Below, in pieces: positions 6,965-57,355 of a stretch of DNA of 64,000 nucleotides. Position 1 is the stretch's first letter. Each line of letters opens with the position of its first letter. Origin of the DNA: Phoronis australis (Eukaryota; Animalia; Phoronida); assembly GCA_002633005.1 (NCBI GenBank), contig NMRA01000594.1:194541-258540 (forward strand), in the 5' to 3' direction. The position numbers and the translations under genes were made by a program. Under the pieces are notes generated by a model. It did no database searches and was not told the origin of the DNA. It saw nothing but the letters and a program-made list of their open reading frames with translations.

Positions 6965-7147
6965 CTTGAGTGGTGGAATACACGGTTAGCATATCCGCGT
7001 CAGGGGGTTTCATGGCATTGATACGAATGCGACTATCTCTGTCCATTTTAACTTCGGTAAACGCATCGTGGCTTCCGCTGTCTGGTTGGACTGCGATATT
7101 AACCGTAGATCCACGGCAAGCTTGAAAAATAAAAACCTTTGGGAATC
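6965..7147 (-). CDS. Caspase exon with catalytic Cys (QACRG), linker and start of p10
   Basis: ttttcag|GA TTC CCA AAG... translates (G)FPKVFIFQACRGSTVNIAVQPDSGSHDAFTEVKMDRDSRIRINAMKPPDADMLTVYSTTQ(G)|gttaga; 183 nt, phase 1 to 1; QACRG at 7110-7124. Confidence 0.95.
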
Positions 7148-10100
7148 CTGAAAAGGAAAAATGTTGAATTCAGACTTCTTTCCTCTGCTCGACCCAGCCG
7201 TCAGGTTATCGTTAACGGGTACGGTCTACACCTAGCGCCCCCCACGCAACGACACGAGTATGGATACAAGTATTCAACGCTCACTATCTTGAGAACACAG
7301 ATTTAACAAAACTGCTGGGAGACTGATACTTTGCTTAGTTTTGCAGAAGCATTAACTCGCATTTCCAATAATGAACACTCATGCATTGTCTTACAGATAA
7401 TGTACACTGTACGTGCTGCGTAAAACGATTTGCATATTGCCTTACATCAAACCCTAACTCACACTATAACGGTTTATAGGTACGGCAAGCTGGAATTAGA
7501 AATAGTTAGTAACCGTCGAAATCCGTAAGTGAAACCGGCCGCAAATTCATTCCACACGTGATAGGACCTCGAAACACCGCAGTTCGCTACAGAACACTAG
7601 CCTCGTCTCCACAGAATTACTATATAGGCTACCGAGGTGAACCGCTGCCATATGATAGTGACCTTAAAGGATATCAACACAATTTATTGTGCCTGAAACA
7701 CAGCCTTAAAAAGCCCCAGTGTTGAACTGGCGTTGTGTTCGCATCGGTTGATGGACCATTACCGTGTGGCTGTCATTAATGAAAGTTGCCATTTGCAGGA
7801 CCGTAGCCTAGGGGGTTGTTGGGGGGGGGGGTTCGACTGAACTCCCCGCGGAAAATGTCCAGCCCCGGCCTTTCCGTTAAAGATGGGATATAGATGGACA
7901 ACAAAATTGTTGCAGCTACTGGTACTACTAATTACCATGATAACTAAGTCAGTAATACTTATGAATTTACTTCACGTAATCATCGGGCCGTACCCGGATA
8001 AGTACTTCGCCCGAATGGTGCTTGATGATAGGATTGTGTAGATGATTAGAGAAGTTTCATCGACATTGAACGCGCGTGGTGGCTACATAAACAAAACGTA
8101 CCGAGAGTGGCGTACATGAAGTAATATACCAAAAGACATTATTCCGCGGTCTCTGTCGATACGCGAGATAAGGTCGAGTGGGGATATTACTTCATGTACG
8201 CCAGTCGAGGTACGTTTTGTTTTTATCCCATACGCATGGAATTCGTGAGTTGCTTTTGTTTTCTTTCGGCATTTTATAAATACTTCACCCTGACTGTTCA
8301 CTTGGCTAATCACAGCCTGTTTTGTATGGACGTGAGCATTATGTTGCTAACTTAATATACATGTAGTAAAAGAAAACAGTTTTAAATGTAACGGTTTATT
8401 ACTTGAACTTGATAAAAAGTGTGAAAACGACATATAAAGTGCACTGAACGTGTATCATATTTCGAAAATAAATAAATAACAAGAATGTTTATAACATTGT
8501 AAAATCCTCATCCGGTAGAGCTAAGCTCATTCATGAAACTAGGTCATTGACCGGAGCGCGTAGCCTACACGTCGTCTGCTTTCACGAAGATGTTAAAAGT
8601 GCCACCGTTGATGACATCTCCGGCGAATAAGCCTGTTGTAGCGTTGTTGCAGGTACGTTGTCGCATTTCTACGGATTATGTAGCCTTGGTGTAAAGCTGT
8701 ATACTAAATATACGAGAGTGTGTTGATGCAGGTAGCTGGCTGGCTACGGACTCTGTAGCATGGATAGGTTCACGTGTTGCTGGGACGACCGTCGTTGCTG
8801 CTCGTGTAATATACTGGGGAGCCCAATGTTCGTCCGCCTAAGCATAAAACCGACTTGCTGTTGTACTCACCGAATTATTCCACTTCAAAGTTATGATCTG
8901 AATAGGATTCGATTTAACTCTCACAGATATACCGCATTCATCGATTCGGAAGTTTTCTTTAATTTGTGCCGAGTTATTTCAAATGTGCACTGCCTTCGGC
9001 AGCCATTTTATTGTGACACCTAAGTTCGTCATATGCTGCCCCCTTTTGTAAAAACTGAGAAACATGCAGAAAAAGGCCAACGAAGTAATGAAAATTGCAA
9101 CAGCCTGTTTTTATTGACATAAACTCGATTTGAAGTTTTGATGTTGAGCTCTGCACTGTGGTTTCCAATAAAAGCCAATTGGTCAACATTTCAATGCAGT
9201 TTAATGGTGAACGTGAGGCAAAAATGTTAAGAACCCAGCGTATCGCATTTGTCTGCGGATTTTTCCTTTGGCCTTCTAGATCCTACTAGTGCCTGGGACA
9301 AACAGATACATTGCATAAACAAACCCTGGATCATGTTTTGTGTCCCGTCGGAAGAAAATTTAAATTCGAAAACATCTTCTGAAAACGCACAAAAAAGTGT
9401 ATTAGTAAAATCTACTGATTTTTAAGTGGTTTTAAAAAACAATCGGTAAACTCACCGATTTTTGTCTCATTACTTTGATACGTGTCTCTTCCGATAAGTT
9501 AGTACCTAACGTGCAGACGAGAACTCCAAATTGGAACGCTAAGTCCCGCGTGGTTGCGCTGCACGCGAAACAAGATGGCGAACGAACTTTGGAGCCTGAC
9601 GGAAATAGGTAACCGGACGATACTGTCGCCGATAGTATCGGGTGCTGTCATCGCCAGTGACAACAAAGTTTAATATTGGCGAGGAATCGGTGCCTGAGTT
9701 GCAGACGATATATTTTAGCAATTGAAAACTGAGACAGAACTGTAATATAATTAACAGCTGAGTCCTGTTTCAGAAGTTACGATTGCATGTTGAATGGTAT
9801 TTACACTGCTACAATTGTATTACTTTAAGCGAGAGAGCTGCAAAAATGTAGTGCGGTGTGAATGCCGTAAAATTGATCAAGAAACAAAATAGCTGAAAGT
9901 AAGTTTGTTATCTGCTATTTTGATATTGCAGAATACGGTATAAGTGTAGACAATTTCTATTTTCCACTTTGGTTGTGGAATGGGAGATGCCATGCATGTG
10001 TGTACACGTGTGTGCGTTTCCCTTTCTTTTAAATCCAGTACATGCCAATAATAATTAAGTTCAACCTAATAGGCAGTCCTCAGTCTTCGCTCAAAATTAT

Positions 10101-10823
10101 ACATTTAACCAAGGAGATAAGTACAATACACTCCTTGATTCAATTATATGGGTGGCGCACCATGGGGTTGGGGGGTATAGCTCCCACTTTTTTCACTGCG
10201 GCACCGCCCATGAACTACCGTATTTTCTTGCACTAAGAAAACCCCGACGAGCATGTTCATTTTATTAGGGAAAAGTAGGTCTAGACTTATCAAAAACTTT
10301 GTGTCGCAGTATGTGTACTTGTGCTTTTGCTTCATTTAGTTTAGTCATCGTATTTCGTAACTTTCTATTGTTGTTAATCGCCACTTTCTTAGAGCAGAAA
10401 ATGAGTAATACTTCCTATTCCTAGAACTGTTTGTTCGTGAGCACAGAGCATCCTTTGCTTGTTCATCGTATTTGATTGGTTAATTCGTGTCTCTCTAGTC
10501 TCTATATACATGTACAATGTATATAACTTTCATTTGTATTTCGAGTAGTAGCTTCAGCATGAGTTGATTAGTAGGTGTTTCTCCCCATTGAGATCTGTTC
10601 CTACTCATGTAACGTTTGCAGTCTTCAATATACTCGTCAAGACTCATCTCTTGTTCTGTTCCAACGAACCACCTCGTACACCGTTGAACCGCATTTTTCC
10701 GTGTACCTCACGCTTTGGTCAAAGGAGAAAGTCTCTTCTTGTCAACCAATATCAATGGCGCACAGCCTCGCAGGCGTCATACGATCAGTAAACGTGATGG
10801 AAAAGATTCCCAAGGTTTCATGT

Positions 10824-11320
10824 CACTATTCCGAAGGTTCACTACTCCATGCTATTGAGTCGGAACTTACATGAGAAAAGTATTGTCCATTTAGTAACTA
10901 CTTGAAGTGTGCAAAAGTTGGATTAGTTCTTAAATCATTGATTACATTGTTTACAAATGAGCTCAGTTCCAACCACTGCCAATCGTGAATCTTGATTCTA
11001 ACTAACGACTCATTTAGTCTTAACCATGAACAACATCGGGTCAGGATTTTGATGTATTATGGTTGATAATTCATCATATTCCTACTTCCTATTCTCTCAA
11101 AAACTCAAGTACGTACTCATTTTCCTTATTCGAAAGACAAGCGGGCAATTTCACAAGCGCTTGAAGTCCGCGCGTTGTTTGTGCATCTAATAACCGAAGT
11201 GCCGCTTATTGAAGGTAAAAGTATATTTGATACACCGAAATTTTAGATATTTTCGGAGTAGTGAACCTTCGGAATAGTAAACCTTCAGAGCAGTGAACCT
11301 TTGGAACACTGGGCTGTTCC
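10824..11320. mobile_element. MITE remnant with 16-bp subterminal repeats in inverted orientation
   Basis: cactattccgaaggttcactactcc near 10825 is the reverse complement of the (ggartagtgaaccttc)n array at 11255-11310. Confidence 0.45.
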
Positions 11321-13814: not shown

Positions 13815-13902
13815 CTATCATTTCCTTTAAGGAATGGCCATCGAAGCTACGAAGGATTTCATCCTGTGTGATGTGGTTCTGATCATACGTCAGTATTCCT
13901 TT
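13815..13902 (-). CDS. Caspase exon (p20, between catalytic His and Cys)
   Basis: ttttccag|KGILTYDQNHITQDEILRSFDGHSLKEMI(G)|gtaagt; 88 nt, phase 0 to 1, joins the flanking exons in frame. Confidence 0.92.
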
Positions 13903-14800: not shown

Positions 14801-15529
14801 AAAACTTCCTGCCCAATTTTCTTAAGAGTTCGTGTAATGAATAAGCCAATAACTCCAGCAGAATTACATATTTTTCTAAAAAGTATTATTTCTGATACCT
14901 CAAATGAATATATTTTACAGAAAAATAATTGGGTGTGTGAAATTTATTATGATACCTTTTCTGAAAAACACACTAACTTTTTTGTTATATAATCTAAAAT
15001 GTGATTAAAATTCCACAATAAGTATCTCAATCTTAAAAACAAATTATAGACACAATCAACTCATTAACCCTGACTGTAGATTGTAAAATGTTGTTGTGTA
15101 AAAGCCTATCTGGTTACAAACAATGTTTGCAGTACGTAAATGCGGTAAATTGGGGTTTAGTGAATTGGCGGCCATTTTGGCAACCATTTTGTAAGCCATC
15201 TTCATTTTTTCTAGCCAACCAGTGACCAGTTGAAAGGTAGAGATATTTTCAATTGTCTAACTTACAAAAGAATAAAAAAATTGCCATTTTCAGGGCAAAA
15301 TATCAAAAAAATATCATGTCAGAAAGCAGTAAACACCGGTTTATGCGACCATTTTTTTCCGCCATCTTAAAAAACCGACTTCCTCCACTCCGATTTCGGT
15401 AGAATTTTTTTCTAGCACCAAGGGATAATTGAAGATGCCATATGTGCAAAAAAACTTCAGATGCAATTTTTTTCTAGGTTGGGCCCTCTGGAGCCCTAGA
15501 ATGACTGGACTATAAATGTGGTTAAGGTT

Positions 15530-18500
15530 AAGAATCACTGATGTTTTCTTTAACCACTTTAGAATACAGTATGAATAAATTGGTCAAAGTTTCAGAAGAA
15601 AAATGCACCTAATGACCCCATGAGTGCACCAAATGACCTGTGAATTTGAAGTGTTTAGCTCAAAATCTTACAACTAATAACCTTTCACCTGTTTAACGTG
15701 ATTGGATGACCCAATTACTTAGAAAAGTAATTTTTTTAAATTGCCTTATTGACTGATATCTGTGTAAATAATTTAAAAAGTATAGCTTTTAAAATAAAGA
15801 AGGAGTAGCAATTTGAAAATTACATGACCTTTGCACCAAATGTCCTACTCCGGTGCATTATGGAATATGATTATATTATGAACAAAAAAATTATGTACTG
15901 TCAAAAATCATATGCTGAATTTGAAAAACGTACCTGCACCCAATTCGAAGTTATTAAGTGTCAAAGTTGGTCGGAAGAAGAATAAGAATAAGAATAAGAA
16001 GAACTGGAAAGATTATTGTCACGGCGTGACAATAACGCACTCTGCGCGTGCGTATTACTGGAATTATTATGGGAATTTACTGACAGCAACCCGTTTACCA
16101 ATACGAAAAGGAATTCTTTAAAATTGTAGGAGAAATTACATATTCATTTTCGATAGCCTTTCCACTAATTGACCTCTTCCAGTGCATTATGAACCCCGAT
16201 GAGGGAGTAATTGTTAACTCTATTAAAAGTGTGGTTAATGCTAAAAATCACAGCAGTTTTACTTTAAGCACTTCAGAATATAAGATGAATGATTTGGTCT
16301 AACTTTCAGAAGAAAAATGCACCTAATGACCCCATGGGTTTACTAAATGACCTGAAAATATACAATTCAAACTCTATCGCACTTAGTAAACAGATATGTA
16401 ATTTTAAAGTCTCCAGCTTAAAATTTTAGTTTGCACTTCATGACTTTCGACCTAGGTTTGTGATTGGATAGGCCTATTGCATTGTAAAGTAGGACGTTCG
16501 ATTGGCATGGTGACCTACACCAGTGAGATGAACTTGAAAAGAATTCCTTGCAAAATGTAGGGATATAACATTTTGAACGTAAGATCACCTTTGCACTAAT
16601 TGACCCTATCCGGTGCATTATAAGCGTCTTCAGGAGAATCATTGCAAAGCCCGTGAAAAGTGTGTTTAATGCTGAAAATCACAGTTGTCTAACTGTTGAC
16701 ACGTCAGTATACTTGGTGAATGAATAGGACACATTTTCAGAAAAAAATGCATACAATGACCCCATGGTTGCACTAAATGACCTGAAACATCGTATTTCAA
16801 ATTGAATTAGACGTACCAATCAGACTTATGAATTTGAATTGTCTAGCTCAAAATTTTAGTTTGCACTATTGACCTTTTTTGATTGGTTAGGCCTATTGCG
16901 TAGGGTGTTCAATTGGCATGTTGACTTACCCCAGTGTGCTGAAATTTAAAAGAATTCATTGAAAAACGTGAGATATAACATTTTGACAGGTAGATGACCT
17001 TTGCACTAACCGACCCTATCCGGTGCATTATAAGCGTCTTGAGGAGAATTATTGCAAAGCCCATGAAAAATATGTTTAATGCTTAAAATCACAGTTGTCT
17101 AACAGTTGACTCATCAGAATACTTGGTGAATGAAAAGGTCAAATTTTCAAAAGAAAAATGCACCTAATGACCCCATATTTGCACTAAATGACCTGAAACT
17201 TTGCATTCCAAATTGAATTACCTGTGCCAATCAGACCTGTGAATTTCAAGTGTCTAGCTCGAAATGACCTTTTATCTGTTTAACCTGATTGGATGACCTG
17301 ATTACTTAGAAAAATATTTCTTTTAAATTTCTTTGTTGACTTATACCTGTGTACGGAATTTAAAAAGAATAGCTTTTCAAATAAAGAAGGAGCAGCATTT
17401 TGAAAATTATATGACCTTTGCCCCAAATGACCTCTTCCGGTGCAATATGGAATATGATTATATAACGAATCAAAATGTATGTACTGTCAAAAACCATATG
17501 CTGATTTTAAGGAATGTACCTGCAACCAATTTGGAGTTATTAAGCCTCAAAGTTGGTCGGAAGAAAAATAAGAAGAACTAGAAAGATTATTGTCACGGCG
17601 TGACAATAATGGACTGGAATTGTTATTGGAAAATACTGACTGCAAATCCGTTTACCAATACGAAAAGCAATTCTTGAAAATTATAGGAGAAATTACACGG
17701 TAATATCTTGATGACCTTTCCGTTAATTGACCTCTTCCGTGCATTATGAGCCCCGATCAGGGAATAATTTTGAACTCGATTAAAAGTGTGGTTAATGCCC
17801 AGAATCACAGATGTACTTAAAGCACCATCAGAGTACAAGATGAATGAATTGGTCAAACTTTCAGAAGAAAAATGCACCTAATGGCCCCATGGGAACACTA
17901 AATGTCCTGAAAATTTAGAATTTAAACTCAATCGCATTTAGTAAACAAATATGTAATTTGAAAGTCTCTAGCTCAAAGTTTTAGTTCGCACGCAATGACA
18001 TTTTACCTATTTATTCTGATAGGTTAAGCCTATTTCGTAGTAATGTAGGGTGTTTAATTGGCATGTTGACTTACACCAGTGTGCTGAAATTGTAGGAAAA
18101 GTTAAATTTTGAACGTTATATGAGCTTTGCACTAATTGACTCTGTCCAGTGCATTATTAGCCTCTTTAGGAGAATGAATGCAAAGCCCGTAAAAAGTGTG
18201 TTTCAAGCTGAGAATCACAGTTGTCTAACGGTGTACACATCAAACATGTCCGTGGTGAATGAAAAGGACAAATGTTCAGAAGAAAAATGCTCCTAATGAC
18301 CCCATACTTGCATCAAATGATCTGAAACTTTGAATTTAGATATGAATTTCATGTACCAATCAGATGTGTGAATTTAAACTGTCTAGCTCAAAATCTGAGT
18401 TTGCACTTAATGATCTTTGACCTCTTTAACCTTGTTGGATAACTCGATTTCTTAGAGAATTATTTTTAAATTCCCTTGTTGACTTATACCTGTGCATCGA

Positions 18501-18968
18501 ATTTGAAAAATATACCTTTAAAACTAAAGATAGAGTAGCATTTTCAAAGTTATATGACCTTTGTACCAAATGACTTCTTCCAGTGCATTATAAGCCTTTT
18601 TGGTAAAAGTATTGCGAAGTCCGTGTAACGTGTACTTTATGGTGAGAACCACAGCCGTCTAATTTTTTACACATCAGAATAGTTGGTAAATGAAAAGGTC
18701 AAATTTTCAGAAGAGAAATGCACCTAATGACCTTATAGTTGAATTCCAAAAGCCAATCAGATGTGTGAATTTGAAGTGTCTAGCTCATAATTTTAGTTTG
18801 GACCTAATGACCTTTGACCTGTTTAATCTGATTGGATGACTCGATTAATTAGGAAAGTATTTTTTTAAATTGTCATGTTGACTTATACCTGTGTACCGAA
18901 TTTGAAAAAGATAGCTTTAAAACTAAAGGAGGAGTAGCATTTTAAAAATTATATGACCTTTCCACCAA
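15530..18968 (-). mobile_element. Second block of the ~433-bp HINE satellite family, truncated
   Basis: Same monomers as 1-5097; 3' palindrome ttattgtcacggcgtgacaataa at about 16013 and 17587; stops abruptly at the CR1 fragment. Confidence 0.8.
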
Positions 18969-18969
18969 G

Positions 18970-20200
18970 TTTCCAGTTCGAAGGAAATTTTCCAGATTGT
19001 AGTATTTTGTTATATAATGTTGTCAAAGGAGCTGTATTGGTTATGAGATTGGTACCGTCGTTTTTGTTTTCGTCAATATTGTCTAGTAGTTTTCGGACTT
19101 CAGATGGCGGGCTCGTATGTCAGAGAGATGTTCTAATGTCTTGTTTGGGAATTCGGGAAAGCTTGTTGTTGGTGCAACGTGACTCTTGGCGGTGACGTAT
19201 TCTAAAAATAACTTACTTTTTTCAGCTTTGGGTGACGCCTGAGTGTTGGATTCCTTTGAGTGGATGGTGGGGTATGAAGATCGCTTTACTTGTCCTCGAA
19301 TTTTGTTTATTATATCCCAATATTCCTTTGAATTTTTGGGGACATTGTTGATGTTGGAGATAATTTTCATCTTATTGTCTTGTTTCGTCTTTTTAATTAT
19401 TTCTTCCACTCGCTTGCATTGTTCTTTGTAGCACTTAAAGGTGCACGGGCTATTTTGATTTTCTGAACGATTTGTACAGTTTGATTCTTTTATATATTTT
19501 AGTTTTGATGTTATTGTTAAACCACGGGTTGTCCTTGTTTTTTATTGTTTTCATGGTTGATGGGATATTATTATTTAGTTTGTTGTAGAGTGACTGTGTG
19601 AATGTTGAGACTGCGTCATTTATGTTACTTTTGCTCACTATTTCAGTCCAGTTAAATGTGGTTATGTCAGTGCGCAGTTTGTCGATGTTAATGAGGTTGT
19701 AAATCCAGATCTCATTGATAACGTCTGGTTCTTTAGGTAAGCAGTTCAGTGTGAATGATGTTTCTATAACGTGGTGATCCGAATTACCAATGGGAGGCCT
19801 TACAGAAATGGATTCAATTAATCCGAGAGTGTTAGTAATACATAAATCAAAGCAAGTATGTGAATACTCTTATAAACGTGTCGGTTCGTTTATTAGTTGT
19901 ACACAGTCATTTGAGAGGAGAATCTCGAATAATTCGAGACCAGCTTGGTTGTCATTGTCTTCTGAGTACCAAGTATTATTTCTTGCGTTGAAATCTTCTT
20001 TGATAACAATTGTTTTATTAGTTCGTGAGAGTTCTTGCAGTTGTTCTGCAAAGGTCTTGATGAAATGTGCTTTCCTGTAAAGGGACGTCAGTGAGGGTGA
20101 GCGATAGAAAAAAAACATAATATACCTTCTTGTGGTTGACATAAAGTTCAACCCAACAGTTATTCATTGATTGTATAGTTTTAGTATCAATTGTTTCGTA
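18970..20200 (-). mobile_element. CR1/L2-group LINE fragment: AP endonuclease plus linker, no RT
   Basis: FYRSPS, IVIKEDFNARNNTW (GDFN-like), QLINEPTR, CFDLCIT, PPIGNSDHHVI, PWFNNNIK, SKEYWDIINK. Confidence 0.8.
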
Positions 20201-20299
20201 ATTTACGGAGTTGTGGCATTACATTGCATAGAAGTTGCATCCTTTGTGTGAAAGAGAGAGATGTCCCTGGTAACTACTAAGGACCAAGAGTAAAGAGTA

Positions 20300-21752
20300 A
20301 GAATATCAAAGCAAAACTGCACCTAATGAGCCCAAAGTTTGTTATCGAAATTTCTTTACCAATGAAAATTATTTACCCGATTATGTAAGATCTAGCTAAA
20401 CATCACTTTTGCTCTTAATGACCTTTGACCTGGAAACTGGGTTCCCTTTATCCGATTTAAATTCCACGTAAATTTCGGGTGCATTTCTCAATTATCTGCT
20501 TGTTTTCGAAATTAGGAGAGGCAATCAAAAAACCTGTAGAAGAAGAAGCAATTTGACGGATTGCACTCCTTGACCCACTTCAGGTCATTCCGGTGCATTT
20601 TGAGTCATCAATGGACTGAGATTGGCAATTGGTTGAACCACGATAAATATGAACCATCTTCACAATGAATGGTGCAAGAGCGAGCTGAATTAAAGAGTCT
20701 TAAATTTAAAAGAAAACTGCATTTAATGACCCCATAGTTGCAACTAGTGACCCCAAAGCTTGTGACTGAATTGCCTTAATAAATGGTAATCATATGCATG
20801 ATTATGAAACGTTAGCTCAAAAATCACTTTTGCACTTACTGACCTTTGACCCGGTAACTCCATTTCCTTAAAACGATAGAAATTCTAAGTAAAATTCGGA
20901 AGAAAGGTCTCTAGTACCTGCTTATTAACAAAATTCGAAGAGACTATCTAAAAAGCAGTAGAAGCAGAAGTAATTTGACGGAATGCACTTCTTGACCCAT
21001 TTCGGGTTAATCCGGTGCATTTTGAGTCAAATCATGTGATCAGTAGAATTTGATCGGTTGAACCACCATGAATTTAAGTACAAGCTGATTGAAAAAGTTT
21101 TAATTTTAAAAGAAAAACTGCACTTAATGACCCCAAAGTTGCACCTATTGACCCCAAATTTTGTGACCGAACTTCCTTGATGAATGGTAATCATATTCAT
21201 GATTGCAAAAGGTCTAGCTCAAAAATTACTTTTGCACTTAATGACTTTTGACCCGGAAACTCAGTTCCTTCATCCATTATGAAATGCAAGTAATTTTCGT
21301 ATGCAGAACTCTATTGTCTACTTGCCACCAAAATTCGAAAAGTCTATCTAAACACCTCTAGATGAAGAATAGTTTTGTAAAAATGCACTCCATGACCCGT
21401 TTCGGGTCAATCCTGTGCATTTTGGGTCAAAACATTATAATCAGAAAAACACAATGATGAATCTATGAACCACAGTGAGTATGAATGTTGTTAGCGGATC
21501 GAAGTAAAAGTACTAATAATCTTAAAATGAAGGAATAATAATAATAAGAAGAAGAAGAATAAGAAGAATAAGATGATAAAATACGTAGAACAGTAAAACT
21601 CTGCGCTTGAACGCGCAGAGTAATACGAAGAACAAGAATAAAATTGAAGAAAACCCAGGAACAACAGTACTCTGCGCTTGCACCCGCAGAGTAATAAAAT
21701 TGAAGAAAACCCAGGAACAACAGTACTCTGCGCTTACACGCACAGAGTAATA
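20300..21752 (-). mobile_element. Divergent HINE subfamily with ~400-bp monomers and the same terminal hairpin
   Basis: aaaactgcacytaatgaccccawagtt-like motif at about 20313, 20713 and 21115; three ctctgcgc..gcagag hairpin termini at 21595-21750. Confidence 0.7.
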
Positions 21753-22158
21753 ACAAACTTGTTTATTTGATCCTGGAGACTCCTTTTGTATGGACATGAA
21801 AATGCACAAGGTACATTTTAACCAAACAAAGAAACTGTGTTCAAAAACAATTGAAAGCACATCATCACTTTCTTGCCAGGTTAGCCTTTTAATGTCGAAC
21901 CTGATAAATGGGTTCATTTTGATAGATACATTAACATGTAAATCATGTTGGTGGAAATACACCAAAAAACAAACCGGGATGATAGCGGTGTCTACCTGGG
22001 ACTAGGATATGATCAATTAATCTTTAACTACACCTGACATTCACCAATACAATTAGGGTGAGTGATGGATGTAAAATTGATGGCACGTTAATCAGTTTAC
22101 CTATACTGATGTTGAACCTAATCCTGTGAAGTAGTTTCCAAAATGAAAGTTTTGTTAC

Positions 22159-22355
22159 CTCGTCTCCATGAGAAAAGATGAAAAATAGCAACTGTTGGTG
22201 TCTTTTCTCTTTCAGCGTATTTTTCGTGTGTTGTACTATCTCTCGAATTCTCTCTAACGAACAATCACGATATCCTTCACCAGAGAGAACTTCATAGGGT
22301 CCAGTCAAAGTCTTCTCAAACAAATTCTTAACATTTTCTTCATCCATTTCAGAGC
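22159..22355 (-). CDS. Caspase exon with catalytic His (SHG)
   Basis: tatttcag|(G)SEMDEENVKNLFEKTLTGPYEVLSGEGYRDCSLERIREIVQHTKNTLKEKRHQQLLFFIFSHGDE|gtaaca; 197 nt, phase 1 to 0; SHG at 22165-22173. Confidence 0.93.
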
Positions 22356-23533: not shown

Positions 23534-23672
23534 ATGTTTGTGGGCTCCCTGCAAGACCTGTAAATGGAAGAGCAGAAACCTATGCACGTGCTGGTGGCGC
23601 TTCGAAACATGGCAGGTGTGTTTTAGAATTCAAGAACATAGCCTGCAAAAATATCAGCCCTAAAGCCTAACC

Positions 23673-39082: not shown

Positions 39083-39181
39083 CATAACGCTTCTGCTTCT
39101 CCATCCCCTGCGGTGTGTCAGCATAGAAGTTGATGTTGTTGATTATGACAACAAGCCCTTGACCGATGTTTGGGTAACACA
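39083..39181 (-). CDS. Caspase exon (start of p20 domain)
   Basis: tttctttctttctag|(x)CYPNIGQGLVVIINNINFYADTPQGMEKQKRY(G)|gtaact; 99 nt, phase 1 to 1; G.xxIINN..F and R.GS..D caspase motifs across the junction. Confidence 0.92.
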
Positions 39182-42100
39182 CTAGAAAGAAAGAAATCTG
39201 TAGAACAAAGCGTGTCATGTCAATAGCAGCAGCTACAATGCGTAAACCTTTTATTGTACATCGAATTAAAATTTGAAAATATGCACACTCCTTGCATTAT
39301 TTGTAAAAACACTGAACACTTTCCCAGAGATATATCTGCTAATAATAGAATTTTCATAATATAGCGGCACCTCGGAAAAAGCCTAAATTTTTCACAAGAT
39401 GCGGCAACATGTTCCCAACAATATCGCAACCTATGTAATCTATAGTACCTATCATATGGTAACAGAAAAAAAAAACGTCGGCAGCCCTTTCGCGAAACGG
39501 TAATGTCGTTCGAAATTATTGGATGGTCTCCAAATGAGACCTTTGCTAAAACAAGTAAAAAATACAACGAAATCTGACGTCTGGACTTGGAAATACATTG
39601 TAAAGTTATGTGTGTACAATCGATTTCTCAATTATCAGTAAAGGATTTATAGGACAATACTACCAAATACCGCAATTACTTTCTCTCAGGGAATTTTCCG
39701 AAACGCTACAAACCGTTTTGCTCTTCACGTTTAATTAGTGAGTATTTGTGAGTAACCAAATAAAAGTCCAATCCATTTGTTTGATTGCCCACGACTTCAG
39801 TGCCTTTGTTGAGCTACGGAGTGATATGCTGAATTTTAGATATTTAGTTAAACAATTTTAAAATATTCTCCTGGCAACCGATGTTTGCCCAGTTCGTTGT
39901 TAGGAAGCGCCAAAGGGTTCTTGCTCTCATCACTGTTTATGAGCGTCTCGTGCAGTGCATTAAAAAGTACCGCGTGGTTTAGAATTGACGCTTACGCAGT
40001 CGATACATGTAGTTAGTCAAACTCTGTTTCTACGCAACAACAAATTCATTTCTAAAAGGAACCGTCTTTTGTCAATGTTTAAAAGCCACATCCCGTACTT
40101 TTTGTGCCTCCGAAGCAGTACTATTAATAGTGGCAAGCAAGACAGGGTCACTCAATGAGTTTGGCTGACCGTTTTTGAAATATACGACACTATGACATAT
40201 TTCATCCTAAGGGACCAAACTCGAATCATTTTCTAATTGAAACCTGCACGGAGTTGGAATATTTCGAGGATTTTGCAAGTCATGAAAAAACTAATTTTTG
40301 AAAATGTGGAAAGCATAAATCACAAAATTTGTCTTAAGTTTACACCGAATTGTTCCCATTAATATTCTATGTCATTATTGACAGGGGAATGATTTCGAGT
40401 TTATTTTCGATAATGTTATTCAATCATTCACGTTCCAAATTTTGGACTATGAAGAAATGGAGAAAATTTGCTCATTTAACGACTTTGATCACAATCATAT
40501 AGCAGGTCAACGCTAGAAGTATATTCTTATATTTCAGGTTGCACGTGCCGGTTAAACTGTAGAGCGCTGATTCAATTTTAACATCGGTAGCTATCTTTGT
40601 GACAAATTCTTTGAACACGAAGTAGGGAAAGGGTGTAGGGCTACCCGATGTAACTGAAGATTTACAAAATCTTTATGGCAATGTCGAGTGGCACAGCATT
40701 GGTTCGCATTACAACATGTGCCTCCAATGCGTTTTAATGGCTGTTGAAACGATTGAGAACTGGTAGGTGCATGAAATGGCTCAATTTTGCGACCTGACAA
40801 TTTGGCGATATTTAACTCTGCAAGAAAGAGCATAATCTAAATATCTCCTCTCGATTTTGGCCGCGGGTAAAATGACAGGAGATTTTTGCGATCAGAAATT
40901 TATGAATGCGGTCTGCATTTGAAATTGCGACCTAGAATTTTGGCTAAGCAGCAAATTGCAATGTGTCGATTTTCATGGCGCCGAAAGCTGTAAGGGGATA
41001 TTTTTTCAACTTTTTCGCCTGTTATATGTATATGAGAATTATCTAAAAATGGAGAATTTTGGGTGCACACTAATCCAGAAAATTCATATCAAAAATGATA
41101 AAAATGGTTTATGAAGTTAAAATTATATCCGTATGGCCACTCAAGCGGATACTGCCTACAGTTCTTTAGGCTAAAACGTATTGTCGCTGCATTAAGAACG
41201 CAACTCTTAGAAAACTCCTAAATAAGAGACGATTTCATAAACCTGTTGAAAGGTAAATGTTACATGTTATCCAGTTACATACTACACTGTGATATTATAC
41301 CCGCAGACTTCGTTGTATGAGAATAACCACGTTTTGTACTTTGTTGAGGGACCAAAGTCACCCCTAGGAACCACCACAATCGCCAAAATTCTCACTGTTG
41401 TTATTATACACTTCACTACTAGTCCATAAGTACTAAGAATTTAAAGAAAATGTTTTCGCCAGGCAACATAGATATATCGCTAAAATTAAAAGAAGGGGCA
41501 TAACGGCTTCCCCATTCTTGGGCTGATGACGGTCCCAAGGCTCTCTAAATCAAAAATACCTTCACACCCACTTTATATATACAAAGCATGGAAGTTGTAG
41601 TGCATTTTTGTGAAAATGTTGTCAAATCACTGTTACCTAAGAAGCCAAATAGGGCAAGGCATAACAGTTGGATCCAGGATTTTAGTTGGGGGGACATAGC
41701 AAAGCATTAGCCAGGATTTTGCCGGTCAGATATTCGCACCCCTGCCAATCGAGTCTGGGAGAATTTGAGAAAGATTCCATATAAAAACCATATGAAAATG
41801 AAAAATTACTATATACTCAAAAACTCATACAGAGCTAATATTTTGTGCATGTGTTGGGATGCTGGCCCAAAGTACACTGCTACAATATTTGCACTCAATG
41901 ACCTTTGCTTACCGAGATATGCCCTATTTGGCTATATAGGCACATTTTGCATTTTTTCATGTCAGTAAAAGTGCATTTTTTGAACGGCAAAAAATCAGAC
42001 TTGGAAAACTGGTGACAAAGTTTGACATAGATGGTCACTAATAAAGGCTCATGTAAGATTAGTAAGAAAATTAAACTTAAAGGTACAATTAAATCTCCAG

Positions 42101-47756: not shown

Positions 47757-48808
47757 CTGTAATGTGCAGGGGTGCCGGAACAATAAATGTTTTCCATCGC
47801 ATCATGGATAAAACTCGTAAATTTCGTCGAGAGTTTTTAGCCACTGCAACATTTGCAAAGACACCATAATTTGTCACAAGACAATTAGAATTTTAGTATA
47901 CATGCACATTGATGTAAGGCGCGCAAGTTCATTGTCGCAATCGGAAATCCGGCAAATAGCATGCTCCGATTTAAAACAAACGATATCAGAACACAAGTCG
48001 GACGCGCCTACATGTAAATGAAAAATTGCATCGTTCGGTGTATTTCTCATTTCTATTTTCACCAGAAAGTTTCGTCTTGCAGGACTGGGCGTTTTTTTCT
48101 TAGATACAGCGCTAAACACCAGCTAAACGTACGCTAGACTCGAAAAGCAAACGAGTTAGGGTAGCATCATCATTAAGACACGGAAAGCATTAGACTGGCG
48201 TATCTATTGGTGACTTTGTTTTTCTTATAATGCAGAAAATGGCAAACATTTATCGCATTGCGACCTGACTTGCTATGACCAACAAAATGCAGCATAGGAA
48301 AACAACCTATAGGTGGAGAATAGGTTCGTAATATAGGTGATAACCCCAAAACGCGCTTGCGCCGGTCGCATGGATGTCACAAGTTAAGCATATCTTACGA
48401 ACTCAATACGACGTCATTTGGTATGGGTAGCTAGGGATATCAATTCTCATCGGCCTTATAGAATAGTCCAGTAATCAACCATTGGATGCTTTAGGGGCAT
48501 GAGAGTTGCGTCTGTCAGAATATAGCGTTCACATATAGATAATTCGTATTAACAAAACAACGCAAGTACTTAGACAGTTTCAGCTACTCACAGCAGCCAT
48601 CTGCGAAAGCTATTGGACAATAGGTGGTGTGGTGATGACACGGTTCCAAGTTTTTTATAATTTACCCCCATAGTCCATGGTCACATCTGAGCCACTTGGT
48701 TGTGTTAATAACAATTAATCTATGTGTACTCTACCAACTTTGAACTGGCTGAACTTCGGGAGCAAGCTTTCGGTCATACAAAATTAGTTCAACGCACACC
48801 ATTTTTCA

Positions 48809-51800
48809 TTGTTACTCTGCTCGTGTAAGCGCAGAGTACTGTTGTTCCTGGGTTTTCTTCAGTTTTATTCTTCTTATTCTTCTTATTACTGTTCTACGTA
48901 TTTTATCTTCTAATTCTTCTTATTAATCTGTGCGGTCAAGCGCAGAGTTATACTGTTCTACGAATTTTATCTTCTTGTGCTTCTATTACTCTGCGCGTTC
49001 AATCGCAGAGTATTTACTGTTTTACGTATTTTATCTTCTTATTCTTCTTAATACTCTGAGCGTGCAAGCGCAGAGTACAGTTGTTCCTGGGTTTTCTTCA
49101 ATTTTATTCTTCTTATTCTTCTTATTTTTATTCTTCTTCTTCTTCCGACCAGATTTAAGACTTAATAACTCCAAATTGAGTGAAGGTACGGTCTTTAAAT
49201 TCAGCATATGATTTTTGACAATATATAAATTTTGATTCGTGAAAAATGATCTTCCATATTGTACCAGAAGGGGTCGTTTGGTGCAAAGGTCATCTCATTT
49301 TCAAAATACAACTCCTATTCTTTTCAAATTTGGTACAAAGGTATAAGTCAATAAGGCAATTTAAACAATTACTTTTCTAAGTAATCGGGTCATCCAATCA
49401 GGTAAAACAGGTCAAATGTCATTAGGTGCAAACTAAGATTTTGAGCTAGACACTTCAAATTCACAGGTCTGATTGGCATAGATAATTCAATTCGGAATCC
49501 AACATTTCAGGTCATTTAGTGCAAACCTGGGGTCACTAGGTGCATTTTTCTTCTGAAACTTTGGCCTTTTCATTCTCCAAGTATACTGATGTGTCAACCG
49601 TTAGACAACTGTGATTCTGAGTATTAAACACATTTTTCATGTGCTTTGCAATAATTCTCCTTAAGACGCTTATAATGTACCGAATAGGGTCAATTAGTGC
49701 AAAAGCCATCTAACGTTAAAATGTGTAATTTCGCCTACAATTTCAAAGAATTACTTTTCATATTGGTAAATGGGTTGCTGTCAGTAACTTTCCATAATAA
49801 TTCCAGTAATACGCACGTGCAGAGTCCGTTATTGTCACGCCGTGACAATAATCTTTCTAGTTCTTCTGATTCTTCTTCTTCTGACCAAATTTGTTACCTA
49901 ATAACTCCAATCTGGGTGCAGGTACGTTTTTTAAATTCAGCATATCATTTTTGACAGTACATAAATTTTGATTTGTTACACCATCATATTCCATAATGCA
50001 CCGGAAGAGGTCATTTGGTGCAAAGGTCATATATTTTTCAAAATGCTACTACTTCCTTCTTTTAAAAGCTATTGTTTTTAAATTCGGTAAACAGGTATAA
50101 ATTAATAAGGCAATTTAAAAAATTACTTTTCTAAGTAATCTGGTCGTCCAATCAGGTTAAATAGGTCAAAGGTCATTAGGTGCAAACTAAAATTTTGAGC
50201 TAGGCACTTTTTAATACACAGGTCTGATTGGCACAGGAAATTCAATTCGGAATCCAAAGTTTCAGGTCATTTGGTGCACACATGGGGTCATTAGATGCAT
50301 TTTACTACTAAAACTTGACCCTTTCAATCAGCAAGTATTCTGATGTGTCAACCGTTAGACAACTATGATTCTCAGCATTAAACACATTTTTCATGGTCTT
50401 TGCAATAATTCTTTTAAAGACGCTTATAATGCACCGGATAGGGTAAATTAGTGCAAAGATCATGTAACGTTCAAAATTTTATATCTTACATTTTTCAAGG
50501 AATTCTTTTCAATTTCAGCACACTTGTGTAAGTCAACATTCCAATTGAATACCATACTTTTGAGCTAGAGACTTCAAAATCACATATCTGTTTACTAAGT
50601 GAGATTGAGTTTGAATTCTAAATTTGCAGGTCATTTGGGGTACCCAGGGGGTCATCGGGAGCATTTTCTTCCGAAAATTTGACCATTTCATTCATCTTGT
50701 ATTCTGAAGTGCTTAAAGCAAAATAACTGTGATTCTTGTCATTAACCACACTTTAATTCGAGTTTAAAATTATTCCCTCGTTGGTGTTCATGATGCAGCG
50801 GAAGAGGTCAATAAGTGGAAAGGTCATCAAAATATTAACATTTATTATTAATTTTACTTTTCATATTGGTAAACGGTTTGCTCTCAGTAACTTCCCATAA
50901 CAATTCCCGTAATATGCAGGTGCAGTGTCCATTATTGTGACGCAATGACAATAATCTTTCTAGGCTTATTCTTATTCTTATTGTTCTTCCGACCAACTTT
51001 GAGGCCTAATAACTCCAAATTGGGTGCAGCTATGTTCTTTAAATTCAGCATGTCAATTCCATATTGCTCTGGAAGAGGTCATTTGGTGCAAAGGTCAAAT
51101 AATTTTCAAAATGCTACTTCTTCAATTTTTATAAGCTATTCTTTTCAAATTCGGTACACAGGTATAAAACAATATAGCAATTTAAAAAATAACTTTTCTA
51201 AGCAATCGGGTCATCCAATCAGCTTAAACGGGTCAAAGGTAATCAGGTGCAAACTCAGATTTTGAGCTAGACACTTCAAATTCACAGGTCTAATTGGCAC
51301 AGCTAATTCAATTCGGAATCCAAAGATTCAGGTCATTTAGTGCAAACATGGGGTCAGTAGGTGCATTTTTCTTCTGAAAATTTGAGCCTTTCATTCACTA
51401 AGTATTCTGATGTGTCAACTGTTAGACAATTGCGACTCTCAGCATTAAACACATTCTTCATGGGCTTTGCAATAATTCTCCTCAATACTCTTATAATGCA
51501 CCGGATAGGGTCAATTAGTGCAAAGGCCATCTAACGTTCAAAATGTAATATATCACGTTTTTCAGGGAATGTTTTTCAATTTCAGCACACTGGGGTAAGT
51601 CAACATGCCAATTGAACACCCAACTTTACTACACAATAGGCCTAACCAATCAGAAAAAAATAGGTCAAATGTCATTGAGTGCAAATTAAAATCTTGATCT
51701 ATGCACTTCAAATTCACAAGTCTGATCGGTACGTCTAATTCAATTTGAAATTTGAAGTTTCAGGTCATTAAATACAACTATGGGATCATTAGGTGCATTT

Positions 51801-52531
51801 TTCTTCAGACAAGTTGTCCTTTTCATTCACCAACTATTTTGATATGTCAACCGTTAGACAACTGTTATTCTCAGCATTAAATATACTTTTCATGGACTTT
51901 TAAACGGGCTTGTAATGTACTGGATAGGGTCAATTAGTGCAAAGGTCGTCTAATGTTTCAAATGTATATCTCTAAAATTATTCAAGGAATTGTTTTCAAT
52001 TTCAGCACACTGGTGTAAGTCTAAATGCAAATTGAACACCCTACGTAACTACGCAACAGGCCTAACCAATCAGAAAAAATAGTTCAAAGGTCATTGAGTG
52101 CAAATTAACATTTTGAACTAGAGACTTCAATATTACACATCTGTTTGGTAAATGCTATTGAGTTTGATTTCTAAACTTTTAGGGCATTTGGTGCATTCTT
52201 GGGGTCATTAAGTGCACTTTTCTTCTGAAAGTTTGACCAATTGATCCATCATGTATTCTGAAGTACATAAAGTAAAACATCTGTGATCCTTAGCATTAAC
52301 CACAGTTTTAATCGAGTTTACATTCATTCCCTCATCGGGGCTCATAATGCATGGGAAGAAGTCAATTAGTGGAAAGGTCATCAAAATATTAACTTGTAAT
52401 TTCTCCTACAATTTTAAAGAATTCATTTTGGTATTGGTAAACGGGTTGCTGTCAGTAATTTCCCATAACCGTTTTAATAATACGCACGCGCAGAGTCCAT
52501 TATTGTCACGCCATGACAATAATCTTTCTAG
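48809..52531 (+). mobile_element. Complete HINE element, inverted relative to the other blocks
   Basis: 5' subTIR plus IR (actctgc..gcgcagagt) in several copies, (TTCTTA)n microsatellite, central ~433-bp monomers, 3' subTIR acgcgcagagt, stem-loop ttattgtcacg-c-catgacaataa, ends ctag|ttttt. Confidence 0.85.
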
Positions 52532-54349
52532 TTTTTACAGTTTTTGTTCCGTTACCTTCATACCTTCGGAACAAAACTCTACTCTCAACTGAACATAGAT
52601 AAAGTAACTGACATACTTGTTTCATTCTTGAGTGAAGATAAAATGACGCAGTAACGCCACCACTGAGCATAAGCTGATGACACACACAGTGGGACACGGG
52701 GGGGGGGTGGAAAATACTGCAAAGAATGACTACTGAAGGGGGGTAACAGGAAAGTCACGCAATTAAGTGCAACGTACGGCGCGACCCTGTTTGATGCTCA
52801 ATCAAAACAGGCTTCTCAAAAGCAATTAAAAGGGACTCTAGTACTCTCAATTGCAGCACATCGTGCTCCACGTAGCGAATTGATGTGTTTTCCACAATTC
52901 CGTGACGGTGATTGTACGTTCGTGGCATTACAGAAAATGATCTTGGATGGCGCCATTTTGAAGATACATAGATAACAGACGGGAAAGACTGCAAACCGTG
53001 CGATCAATGTAACATTGTTTGACGTTTGAACGAAGACATTCATTAATAGGGCATACAAACTCAAAAACAACACTGCACCGTGCAACGGGGCGGACTTTCG
53101 CTTTAGAAATATTATTTGTCATGTCCAAATTGGAGGAGTTCCTATTCCGTTAATAAATAATAACGTCATCAGGCTTACAAACTTTAACATTATCCTAATA
53201 ATTTTCTTAATGGCATGTTCGTCCTGGAGGTAATTATTAGACTTGACATTTTTGTAAAATATATTTTTGGTTACACCGGTCCGACGTGCAGGGATTACAT
53301 AGCTATCTCTGGACACGAATAGCTTAACATGGAAGGCTACTTTATCTATGTTCAGTCGAGAGTAAAATTTTTTCGAAGGTATGGACGTAACGGAATAAAG
53401 ACTGTCAACAATGAAAAGTGTCGTGCGTTTAACCAATTGTACTAACCTTATGAAATTATTTAGAGACGAATATAGCGTTCCTAACACATTTCCTTGTCAG
53501 AAACTTGCAGGGCAAAAATTCCGTATTTAAGACAATGTCCGAAGTTCCTGGACAATTAAATAAACAGTTTTGGGACTTGTACGCATTTTTAGACAATTAA
53601 AACTCATTTTTGTAATTTCATTTTTTTTCCAATATGGCAGGCCGTCCAAATATGGCGCAAATTCATCGTAATAATTAAACCAAATCAAGTACTTACAAAA
53701 TGTTGTTATTTTGCTTAGTGTAATATTACCTTCACGTTTACGTTCTTTAGGTTTAATCTGAAACGAAAATTGGTATTCAAGTTAAGTACATAATCAACTA
53801 TAATTTCGAGTTTTGGACATTGCAAGCTGAAAAAATTGGAACTCAACGACCTCAACCCAGCAATAGACGAATGGTGTCTTTTCATACGAATGCTATGGAC
53901 ATGAGTGCCAGAATATGACACAAATGGTAAAACACAAAACTGAAATAGAAGAAGAATTTAGAATGACAAAAATGTAGGCTTGACAAGTTTCCATGAGCTT
54001 AATGCTCGCAGTTCATTGCAATCGTACCAAAGGTTACCATACATGTATATGCATCTTACTGGAATCGAAAACTAGCTTAACTGTGAGGTGACAAACATCG
54101 TCCAGCGAAGCTATAATCTTCCTTAATTTTATCATACATGTATAATAAATCAGATGAGATTGCTTCAAGGCGAACTACAATTACTTATGTTATCCCTCAC
54201 CGATTTATTGTACACTTTCTAGACATATGACCAGTTGATAAACCTTTTATTTAAAGTCACGGACTGGCATAATTATGGATTTGGCTCAAAATTCGAAACT
54301 TGGATTATGAGGGATTTGAGCATGTGTCTCAGAATTTGCAAGCCAATTA

Positions 54350-56391
54350 TTAGGTCAAGTGCGACGTAAGTCAGATTTATACCAAAATATCAGCCTCGAA
54401 TGGCAAATACAACCGTGTAATAACCCATTTAGCTATCTCACTAGTGAGATATTATTTTGGCGTGAAACCGAGGCCGGTTTCGAACCCGGCCGTCAAGAGT
54501 TTCGGGTCACCGACTTTAGCACTACACCACTTAGCGGCTGACGTCATTGAGCGTGAAAATAGAATGTGTAAATGACCACGCGCAATAATTCCATGTTCAA
54601 CAAAGGACTTTGTTCTGCCATTTATACTCTGTGAAAAGTCAGACGCTTAATTTCCATAAAAACGATATCTTTTTTTTTTTATTGAGATATTTATTAACTC
54701 AACCAACCAGTACATAGTTGTGCGACAATATGACATCTAGTTTAGTGTACATCAGACAAATTACGAACATTATCGATATCTTAATTCAGTGAAAGTTTTT
54801 CCTCCTATTCGCGCTTGTAAATCACCGATCTCCAATTTGAATGCGGACGTGCGTTCAATAGACGCCTACGCTAGGACCTAGCTAAAATCTAGTCAAGGTC
54901 ACGTGTTCTCATTTAAAATACACGGCAATATCTCACGTAATCTCGCGAAATCTTGCTTTTTAACCAGGTCCTTGCGTTACCGAACGGGCGGCAGGTATTG
55001 TGTCGACGGGATTCTTTGACTTGAGAATTATAATCAGTTACCACTGGTAACCTACTTTAGCAGACGATAGTTTCCTGGTCAAACCCTAGCGTCATAAAAT
55101 ATGTTTTAAGGTATACTGGTTGGCAAACCTTGATTTATCAATTCACTTCATTTCTATTTTGATTAAATTTTCAATTGTTTCTAGTAAAAGTATTATTTGA
55201 CAGGAATGGCTCGGCTTTTCTTAAAAGGTCACGACCCACAACCCCGGGCCTCTGACATAGAAAGTGGTTACAAAGCCGAGGCGAGTCGAGAAAGGTAAAT
55301 GTAGATATCTTCATAGCAATGTTTCTCGTTTAGTATGACTTTTGTGGTATAAATAAATTATTACATGTTTTCAGCCGTTTAACGCCCCTCGGGCGATAAT
55401 TCTCTAAAACCCACTCGGGTTCTAGGTAGCAGGGGATAACGACTTCGCCATGTAATAATCTACATTTATTACTGTAATAAGTTTTTAGCGAATGAGAAGA
55501 GACGGATTTTAACTGCAATATATAGATTATTACATGGCGAAGTCGTTATCCACCGTTATCTAGAGCCCGAGTGGATTTTGGAGAAATCGCCCGATGGGCG
55601 TTAGCCCCGAGGATGATAATTCTGCAAAATCCACGAGAGCTCTAGATAAGGGGGATATTGGCTGAGAACATGTAATAATCTATTCATACCGCAAACTAAA
55701 CGAGAAACATTGCAATGAATCGATTTACCCTTCTAGAATCGCCTCGGCTTTGTAACTACTTCCTATGTTAGAGGCCCGGGGTCGGAGGTCGTGACCTTTT
55801 AAGAAAAGCTTAGCGATTTTTGTCAAATAATACTTTTACTCAAAACCAATTGAAAAATTAAACAAAACAGAAATATAGAGATTTTATAAGTTAAGGTTTA
55901 ACAACTATTATAGCTTAAAACACATTTTATCGAGCTAAGCTTCGACCGGGAACTGCCATCTGCTAACTGAGTATAATTCTCAAGTCAAAGGATCCCGACG
56001 ACACGATACCCGCATTAAAATTGGAGAACCGTGATTTACAAGTGAGAGAACATGACAGAAAAATTTCACTGAATTAAGATATCGTTTTATGGAAATTATG
56101 GGTCTTATTTTTCATAGCGTATAATTGTCAGTACATTGTACCTTGTTGAACATGGGATTATTGTGCGTGCTCATTTAATTATTCTATTTTCACGCTCGAT
56201 GTCGTCAGCCGCTTAGTGGTGTAGTGGTAAAGTCAGCAAACCTAAAATCTGGAGGCCCTGGTTCAAAATCGGTCTCGGTTTCCCGCCAAAATGTTATCTC
56301 ACTAGAGAGACAAATAAATGGGTTGTACATGTATTTGCCATTCGAGACTAATATTGTGGTATAAATAAGATTTATTTCGCACATGGCCTAA
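54350..56391. mobile_element. ~2-kb foldback (palindromic) element, Harbinger-like ends
   Basis: Arms are reverse complements from ttaggtcaagtgcga / tcgcacatggcctaa inward to a ~55-bp spacer near 55465-55520. Confidence 0.85.
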
Positions 56392-56426
56392 CTTACAGCT
56401 AAGCCACTGAACGCACACTACACATG

Positions 56427-56429
<3 letters not shown>

Positions 56430-56486
<57 letters not shown>
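56430..56486. repeat. (TA)n microsatellite
   Basis: Pure TA run. Confidence 0.98.
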
Positions 56487-56489
<3 letters not shown>

Positions 56490-56564
56490 ACATGCACGTG
56501 TGTCAAAACATATGCATTTTGATCTTTAGACAGCAGCTTCGGGAGAAACTACGAAGCACCTCAC

Positions 56565-57355
56565 TATAACATTTTGATGGACATGACTTAAGAATCTACT
56601 TGCCTCTACGCTGTCACTTAAAATGCAGTCGACATCTTCCTCATTTCCTTGCCGCACCTGAACAGTGACTGAAGAACCGTCTACAGATGTTTTACCAGAT
56701 GTTCCTGCAATACGTTCGCCGGTTTCCTGCCATATGTTCATGTTAACTTTCTTTAGCGTGAACGATGCTTGAGCTTCCTGACCTTCCACTGTGGACCAAT
56801 AGAACTTAATGTTCATTTTCCGATCAATGTGCAATTCCTTTAGATAGTTAAGATGAACTGGATGATATGGCCATTCGCCATATTGAGTGTGACACACTAG
56901 GGCTAGATCCAAACAGTTTCCGTTTTGGGTTGCCGAAGGGCAAAGGTATGCAAAGAATGTCCTTGACCACAGTGCATATATTTTTTCGATGTTTCTCTTG
57001 AATGTGCTATAGCCGATCAAGAAAAAGGAGAAATGATGACAAGAGAAAACAAGCTCTTCGCCCTCCAGCCGAGGATTGCTTTCATTGGTGATGTTATCCA
57101 CTTGTCCGTTTGATTTGCGTAGAATGAAAAAGCCGGCTTCGTCACAACTTGTTACACCCATCTCTCGTAAAATGCTGTTCACGTTTACTTTAACTGTCAC
57201 GGGAGTTTCGATTTTCGCGGGTTCGAATACTACCACACTAATCGTTTTCGTAAGCAAGTACAAAGAACCTGTGACAAGTTCGTCCTTGGCAAGTTTCATC
57301 ATCAAAGGATGTTCAACCTCTATCACTTCATATGACATGCCTGCACCTTCAATCG
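56565..57355 (-). CDS. Large exon encoding ZU5 domain (HFS motif) plus UPA-like domain
   Basis: Stop-free 270-aa ORF; ISVVVFEP..ETPVTVKV, VDNIT, LVFSCHHFSFFLIG (HFS at 57027-57035); acceptor ctctttctctttag at 57356; candidate phase-0 donors ata|gtgagg (56565) or gag|gcaagt (56604); unspliced stop at 56526. Confidence 0.75.

Follow-up and report, generated by a model that had tools for sequence, protein, structure and literature searches.

A ZU5-UPA-like exon upstream of a divergent caspase on one strand of the Phoronis australis genome: probably two neighbouring genes, possibly one self-cleaving fusion

The 64,000-nucleotide stretch of Phoronis australis DNA analysed here (the window) carries on its minus strand a large exon with a ZU5-like and a UPA-like half and, 17 kb downstream on the same strand, the first recognised caspase-domain exon of a divergent caspase. 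We read these as two neighbouring same-strand genes, a view to which we give about an even chance, slightly likelier than one gene: the large ZU5-UPA-like exon of an expressed gene would end at its own stop (56526), and the caspase would start from a short exon lying unrecognised in the 17-kb gap. That the two parts form one gene, with the ZU5-UPA exon spliced over 17.4 kb to the caspase, perhaps in just one of two splice forms, is a reading that we rate somewhat short of even.

The large exon (56526..57355, minus strand) lies in the longest open frame of the window, which has 282 codons (57374-56529; chance of about 5e-8 per start); its ZU5-like half runs to about 57030 and is followed by a UPA-like half of 167 residues, open to the TAA at 56528-56526, and this open frame argues for two genes. 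RNA shows the acceptor at 57355 in use: in three raw runs (X1-X3), of which 18-19% was read, a GT-AG joint 59443-57355 is crossed by 6 reads in run X2, which have 6 starts, and by none in X1 or X3. The intron so defined (2,087 bp) is the sole RNA-proven intron of the ZU5 gene. The joint fixes the 3' end of an upstream exon (59443..59524, minus strand, 82 bp, phase 0 to 1), while its 5' end near 59524 is placed by an acceptor score of 6.4 and the open frame; this exon likely encodes the first strands of the ZU5. By way of it the ZU5 gene extends upstream of the original finding. A further exon candidate at 59791-59719 was dropped because its phase does not suit the exon that follows and it is not coding-like, and a bacterial promoter scan is uninformative for animal DNA.

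Two moderate lines of evidence, from the Atlas and from Foldseek, identify a ZU5 beta-sandwich in the large exon. In the Atlas the first match scores 0.96 to ZU5/UPA clusters with 184 shared features, and one clan accounts for 10 of the 10 best family matches, at a recognition of 2040, below the 2300 mark; the top cluster is a 292-residue ZU5/UPA protein, which favours a gene ending with the UPA. Foldseek places ankyrin ZU5 structures at ranks 1, 2, 4, 6, 10 and 12, with ankyrin-B ZU5 in the first two places (E = 6e-3 and 1.2e-2; no E value was below 1e-3); the VIA Z of 5.3-6.3 for the ZU5 match is level with that of unrelated sandwiches, and the model of the full exon is poor (pLDDT 38, best Foldseek E = 0.14). 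For the UPA-like half (residues 108-275) the first Atlas match, at 0.88, is to a cluster in which 16% of the members have UPA and serves as a lead only; its model has a pLDDT of about 30, and the PDB sequences gave one chance match and none that was useful. The large exon has no match in Pfam, and no relatives of it were found in PDB sequences, 5.8 billion proteins, 1.84 billion representatives or metagenomes. The HFS motif (57027..57035, minus strand, residues 107-109, Ser codon 57029-57027), a predicted F/S self-cleavage site, is flanked by predicted strands 100-105 and 110-114 and lies between the ZU5 and UPA-like halves. By itself the motif is uninformative, as there are 42 copies across the six frames; its ZU5-UPA context is supported, and the ZU5-UPA protein is predicted to cleave itself at HF/S. 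The original prediction had described a ZU5(HFS)-UPA-like exon and had named the lack of any predicted ZU5 fold as grounds against its fusion to the caspase; because the ZU5, HFS, UPA-like and caspase calls held in blind tests, with matches to ZU5 in both the Atlas and Foldseek, this objection fails.

Among known systems, UNC5CL cleaves itself at F/S in its ZU5-UPA module, and PIDD recruits caspase-2 in trans via RAIDD. Like PIDD1 (LRR-ZU5-ZU5-UPA-DD) and UNC5CL, the Phoronis exon has a ZU5, then HF/S, then a UPA-like domain; unlike PIDD1 it shows one ZU5 and no death domain after the UPA, and no sequence similarity to PIDD1 or UNC5CL was detected in Pfam or PDB sequences. PIDD cleaves at an HF/S following each ZU5 (PMC3210808). 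The ZU5-UPA layout is also common to the FIIND of CARD8 and NLRP1 (ZU5-UPA-CARD), and FIIND clusters are among the Atlas matches (0.92), but the FIIND motif is SF/S rather than HF/S, no CARD was found here, and the caspase of CARD8/NLRP1 is a separate protein. If there are two genes, the cut at HF/S would leave the 167 residues that precede the stop as a UPA piece that remains bound to the ZU5 and, carrying no effector, would act as an oligomerising or decoy tail; N-terminal domains outside our view would carry the signal of the protein. Shuffled invertebrate proteins provide precedents both for ZU5+UPA termini, which favour two genes (Death+Death+TRADD-N+ZU5+UPA in Strongylocentrotus and HEPN+TRADD-N+ZU5+ZU5+UPA in Orbicella), and for a ZU5 directly before an enzyme, which favours a fusion (ZU5+ZU5+GT4 in Acropora and Branchiostoma; PMC8195603 supplement). 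File 4 of the same supplement has no row in which UPA, ZU5 or FIIND is joined to a caspase, and no ZU5-caspase fusion was found in the literature searched.

The strongest donor-like site of the large exon (56652..56657, minus strand, phase 0, score 5.5) fits the caspase acceptor at 39197 but would remove 43 residues from the UPA-like half; a second site (56559..56564, minus strand, phase 0, score 1.0) fits the same acceptor and, sparing the whole UPA, is the likeliest fusion donor of that kind. The most plausible fusion splice would run from 56564 or 56657 to 39197. Donors that spare the whole UPA score at most 1.0, against 1.8-6.7 for five others, and this weakness favours two genes. So does the coding-like, GC-rich character of the tails: the 43 codons beyond 56657 are open, and against 3,422 background stretches free of stops their codon-position bias ranks in the top 0.2%, while that of the 12 codons beyond 56564 ranks in the top 4.4% of 17,731; GC in the 36 bases after donors 56657 and 56564 is 0.50 and 0.56, whereas the other intron starts (5 of 5) have 0.33-0.39 and the sequence beyond the stop at 56526 has 0.36. 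The sequence tests lean towards the large exon ending at its own stop, although one exon can be terminal and internal alike. An inverted-repeat element (54350..56391, with 322-bp arms that are 81% alike) begins 135 bp past the stop and contains the nearest AATAAA (56376).

The RNA coverage is uneven. About 21 reads lie on 56992-57355, whereas 56741-56991 has 0 bases where about 2,080 would be expected, a gap not accounted for by a terminal exon, and 15 of 15 reads carry a different letter at position 57095. These features suggest a third reading, which we regard as improbable: a broken or partly silent locus. On this view either transcription of this copy is confined to the ZU5 half, or the reads derive from a close paralogue or allele whose sequence departs from it below about 56990; the caspase would be a relic, or else part of a gene that has additional exons, not recognised as such, within the gap. 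Two reads less than 90% alike on caspase exon 1, pointing to a related transcript, would fit such a locus, but some ZU5-half reads have 0-1 other differences, the dips in depth may be an artefact of the read filter, and none of the five large exons is damaged, their splice sites are canonical and the two catalytic residues are present.

The caspase is encoded by four minus-strand exons whose phases match throughout. Exon 1 (39083..39197) opens at the start of the caspase domain from an acceptor at 39181 (phase 1, score 4.6) or 39197 (phase 0, score 4.0); exon 2 (22159..22355) holds the catalytic His in SHG (22173-22165) and matches Peptidase_C14 with E = 0.007 (7e-4 for the longer ORF); exon 3 (13815..13902, 88 bp, phase 0 to 1) fits by splice sites and frame; and exon 4 (6965..7147, acceptor score 8.6) carries QACRG (7124-7110), the inter-subunit linker and the small-subunit start, ends at a phase-1 donor, and matches Peptidase_C14 with E = 2.8e-5, a match that clears the curated cut-off, and caspase-3/7 structures with E = 0.002-0.08. 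Exons 1 and 3 by themselves have no Pfam match, and no relatives of the QACRG exon were found, one of the searches being weak with 2 candidates only. The protein has the His-Cys dyad of a caspase in SHG and QACxG, and Asp-specific protease activity is predicted. It shares SHG, QACRG, an Arg before a GS motif and an Asp-site linker with animal caspases (Peptidase_C14); it is very divergent, with caspase-3 and -7 as its best structure matches. The linker has two Asp sites that we take to be spaced as in caspase-8, in keeping with a fusion. As a gene of its own, it would encode a short-prodomain enzyme activated by linker cleavage. A motif search found no fitting exon below 6965 within the window for the end of the small subunit, a point for the broken locus, but this end may lie beyond the window edge, the last 7.0 kb before which include 5.1 kb of satellite.

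Caspase exon 1 had been said to have an acceptor and no start codon; the acceptors at 39181 and 39197 bear out the first part, while the frame also contains an ATG at 39218, 37 bases upstream of acceptor 39181, which goes against the second, although the stretch from this ATG is not coding-like and the acceptor that precedes it scores poorly (-0.8). The phase-0 acceptor 39197, which agrees in phase with donors 56657 and 56564, is favoured by a branch-point-like motif at 39223, a point against two genes. The three caspase introns measure 16,727, 8,256 and 6,667 bp, in agreement with the earlier 16.7, 8.3 and 6.7 kb; the argument that the 17-kb gap resembles them and so belongs to one gene does not hold, because mobile elements have swollen the long caspase introns and the proven ZU5 intron is far shorter. 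What leans towards a fusion is that the two parts are adjacent and that no prodomain is visible. They share a strand, in a domain order that suits a fusion, and the first coding exon recognisable beyond the ZU5-UPA exon on that strand belongs to a caspase without a 5' end, which would be a rare coincidence if the two were unrelated; moreover, 6 of 6 donor-acceptor pairs give a stop-free fusion of 407-485 residues within the window. None of 100 gap ORFs matches a death-fold family; such a scan should reveal a DED or DD prodomain because these are single exons in oyster (PMC7836458), although split or divergent exons could escape it. Gap exon candidates at 44677-44438 and 53939-53730 were dropped as not coding-like and scoring no better than controls; exon scores of 8 or more number 2 in the gap and 0-2 in each of 7 control regions. 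Against a fusion, no read in the 3 runs joins the ZU5-UPA exon to the caspase, a test that used loose read ends at a depth too low and patchy at both ends, and caspase exon 1 has 0 close-matching reads in these runs (about 10 expected), which is weak evidence since the RNA also misses 56741-56991 entirely. No two-domain relative was found either, by searches that found no relatives whatever.

If the two parts are separate, the locus pairs a divergent protein ending in ZU5-UPA with a divergent caspase; both sequences would be new, though of kinds already known, and of modest interest. If they are fused, the protein would, by analogy with the CARD8/NLRP1 UPA fragment that clusters on release, cut itself at HF/S with the pieces staying associated, and once the N-terminal piece is lost, a UPA-caspase would be set free, its protease dimerised by UPA clustering without an adaptor; in support, UPA alone aggregates and lowers the CARD filament threshold (PMC7794386). 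Such a one-protein PIDDosome or CARD8-like tripwire, perhaps with a caspase-free splice form as a brake, falls a little below an even bet in our estimate. Prodomains in 46 bivalve caspases are CARD, DED, DD, DSRM or none, the oyster DSRM-caspases being animal caspases with an unusual prodomain (PMC7836458); a fused Phoronis protein would have a prodomain type for which we found no description in the literature searched. In it UPA clustering alone could do the work of the CARD, DED or DD in activating the caspase, and it would be a single-chain model, outside vertebrates, of the functional-degradation switch of CARD8/NLRP1.

The 282-codon frame at 57374-56529, the longest ORF of the window, belongs to a large exon (57355-56526, TAA stop at 56528-56526) that lies, like all the exons discussed here, on the minus strand. 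No relatives of this exon were found by sequence in Pfam, PDB sequences, or large protein and metagenome databases. In the ESM Atlas, where its recognition is 2040, below the 2300 mark, the top match (0.96, with 184 shared features) is a 292-residue 'UPA domain-containing' cluster, 47% of whose members carry ZU5 and in which Echinodermata are commonest; ZU5, FIIND and UNC5 clusters follow. When the first 130 residues were modelled from the single sequence (pLDDT 53), Foldseek placed ankyrin ZU5 structures at ranks 1, 2, 4, 6, 10 and 12 (best E 6e-3), while VIA gave them Z 5.3-6.3, level with unrelated beta-sandwiches. These two blind tests (ESM Atlas; model plus Foldseek) point to a predicted ZU5 domain, as originally proposed; the UPA half of that proposal is a lead only, the part after HFS matching a UPA cluster at 0.88. 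The HFS motif (residues 107-109) is at the end of the ZU5, flanked by two predicted strands, as HFS is at the ZU5 end of PIDD1 (PMC3210808); cleavage at HFS is predicted.

The acceptor at 57355 is used in RNA: in run X2, one of the raw RNA runs of the same species (X1 to X4), six reads with six different starts span a joint from 59443 to 57355, a GT-AG intron of 2,087 bp on the expected strand; runs X1 and X3 contained none. The joint reveals a further exon upstream, about 82 bp long and absent from the original prediction; it has no in-frame ATG, so the start of the gene lies further up. An exon-like stretch at 59719-59791 on the minus strand, 195 bp above it, was rejected despite a splice score of 9.9, because its phase would stop the frame. 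Of the 128 ORFs listed outside the 7-57.3 kb interval, 43 lie in satellite; the other 85 were scanned with Pfam and gave nothing relevant. Repeats at 61400-61450 and 62150-62385 dominate the alignment: they draw RNA reads of other loci by the hundred.

The prediction of a caspase on the same strand held: four exons (39181 or 39197-39083, 22355-22159, 13902-13815 and 7147-6965) join in frame through canonical splice sites, with phases 1, 0 and 1 between them, and carry SHG and QACRG motifs. Pfam recognizes Peptidase_C14 in the last exon (E 2.8e-5, above cut-off) and, at E 0.007, in the second; exons one and three, each alone, gave no match. The last exon ends in a donor, and no exon for the remainder of the small subunit turned up within the window.

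The window is AT-rich (GC about 0.38), with many satellites and retroelement remains. The first caspase intron holds a degenerate LTR retrotransposon (31658-38218). Its direct repeats measure about 0.9 kb and are 85% alike, with partial duplication at the left end, and stops interrupt the fragments of RT, RNase H and the integrase zinc finger. Remains of two LINE-type elements (23664-27705, plus strand; 19086-20163, minus strand), with ORF1-like coiled coil, endonuclease and RT, also occupy caspase introns. Four arrays (1-5097, 15504-18974, 20318-21757 and 48801-52606) belong to one satellite family, whose period is about 430 bp and whose spacers are rich in AAG/AAT; the last array lies inside the gap of about 17 kb between the large exon and the caspase. 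A 2-kb element (54350-56391), whose inverted arms measure 322 bp and enclose an imperfect palindrome about 1 kb long, is placed directly past the large-exon stop and a 57-bp AT run.

The central question is whether the two parts, both real, belong to one gene. We consider it an even prospect that they are two neighbouring genes; the splicing of the ZU5-UPA exon to the caspase, as sole form or as one splice form, which was the original prediction, we regard as a serious possibility at somewhat below even chances. Scored with splice matrices, the large exon offers minus-strand donors at 56657 (5.5, phase 0), 56782 (3.7, phase 1), 56695 (1.1, phase 1) and 56564 (1.0, phase 0), against 1.8-6.7 for the other five donors. 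All six donor-acceptor pairs tried are free of stops; this carries little weight, because the first caspase exon offers acceptors in two phases (39181, phase 1; 39197, phase 0; minus strand). Splicing finds an argument in the gap, where no other source of the caspase 5' end was found: Pfam at E 0.1 on 100 ORFs of at least 38 residues gave four with any match and no death fold, and exon-like candidates are as frequent as in control regions; that a caspase should come next by mere coincidence is, moreover, presumably unlikely. A short first exon, however, would be missed by both tests, and an in-frame ATG stands at 39218, above the first caspase exon. Sequence past the donors argues against splicing: the 43 codons past 56657 are open (chance 0.08) with a codon-position bias in the top 0.2%, and the 12 past 56564, a small test, are in the top 4.4%, under a model whose training set was no more than about 1.3 kb of exon. 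GC drops to intron level only past the stop, not after the donors, and an AATAAA lies 150 bases 3' of the stop, within the inverted-repeat element.

The RNA had been aligned with the large exon and the first caspase exon on separate stretches, which puts a direct joint outside what the listing could show. Within the large exon, about 21 reads fall on 56992-57355, none on 56741-56991 in three runs, and about 100 bases of X3 on 56490-56740; an alignment filter, a divergent allele or paralogue, or an early end are candidates for the hole. The first caspase exon, where about 10 reads would be expected at equal depth, has none in X1, X3 and X4, a dip of a kind that the alignment filter can make and that resembles the drop within the large exon. 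X2 has two reads there (one pair) on the same strand, covering about 40 bases (39127-39164) at less than 90% likeness, which suggests a transcript of a related caspase. A broken locus, or one confounded by a paralogue, seems to us improbable.

No ZU5- or FIIND-caspase fusion was found in a literature search at title and abstract level that covered few subscription papers. Proteins ending in ZU5+UPA, ZU5+UPA+Death and ZU5+GT4 are on record in the supplement of PMC8195603; among the matches listed there (for 'ZU5', 90 of 96 places in file 4 plus 30 of 66 in file 6; for 'caspase', 30 of 139 places), in a table of TRADD-N and GT4 proteins only, none has Caspase next after UPA, ZU5 or FIIND.

With either arrangement, the predicted cleavage of the ZU5 at F/S would proceed through a Ser-driven acyl shift, the pieces remaining bound, as PMC3210808 describes for PIDD and CARD8. 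According to PMC7794386, UPA by itself aggregates, and it makes CARD filaments form at a lower threshold. In a fused protein, the freed UPA-caspase might cluster through UPA and dimerise the protease; with two neighbouring genes, the freed piece would be a bare UPA, a putative tail for oligomerising or a decoy.
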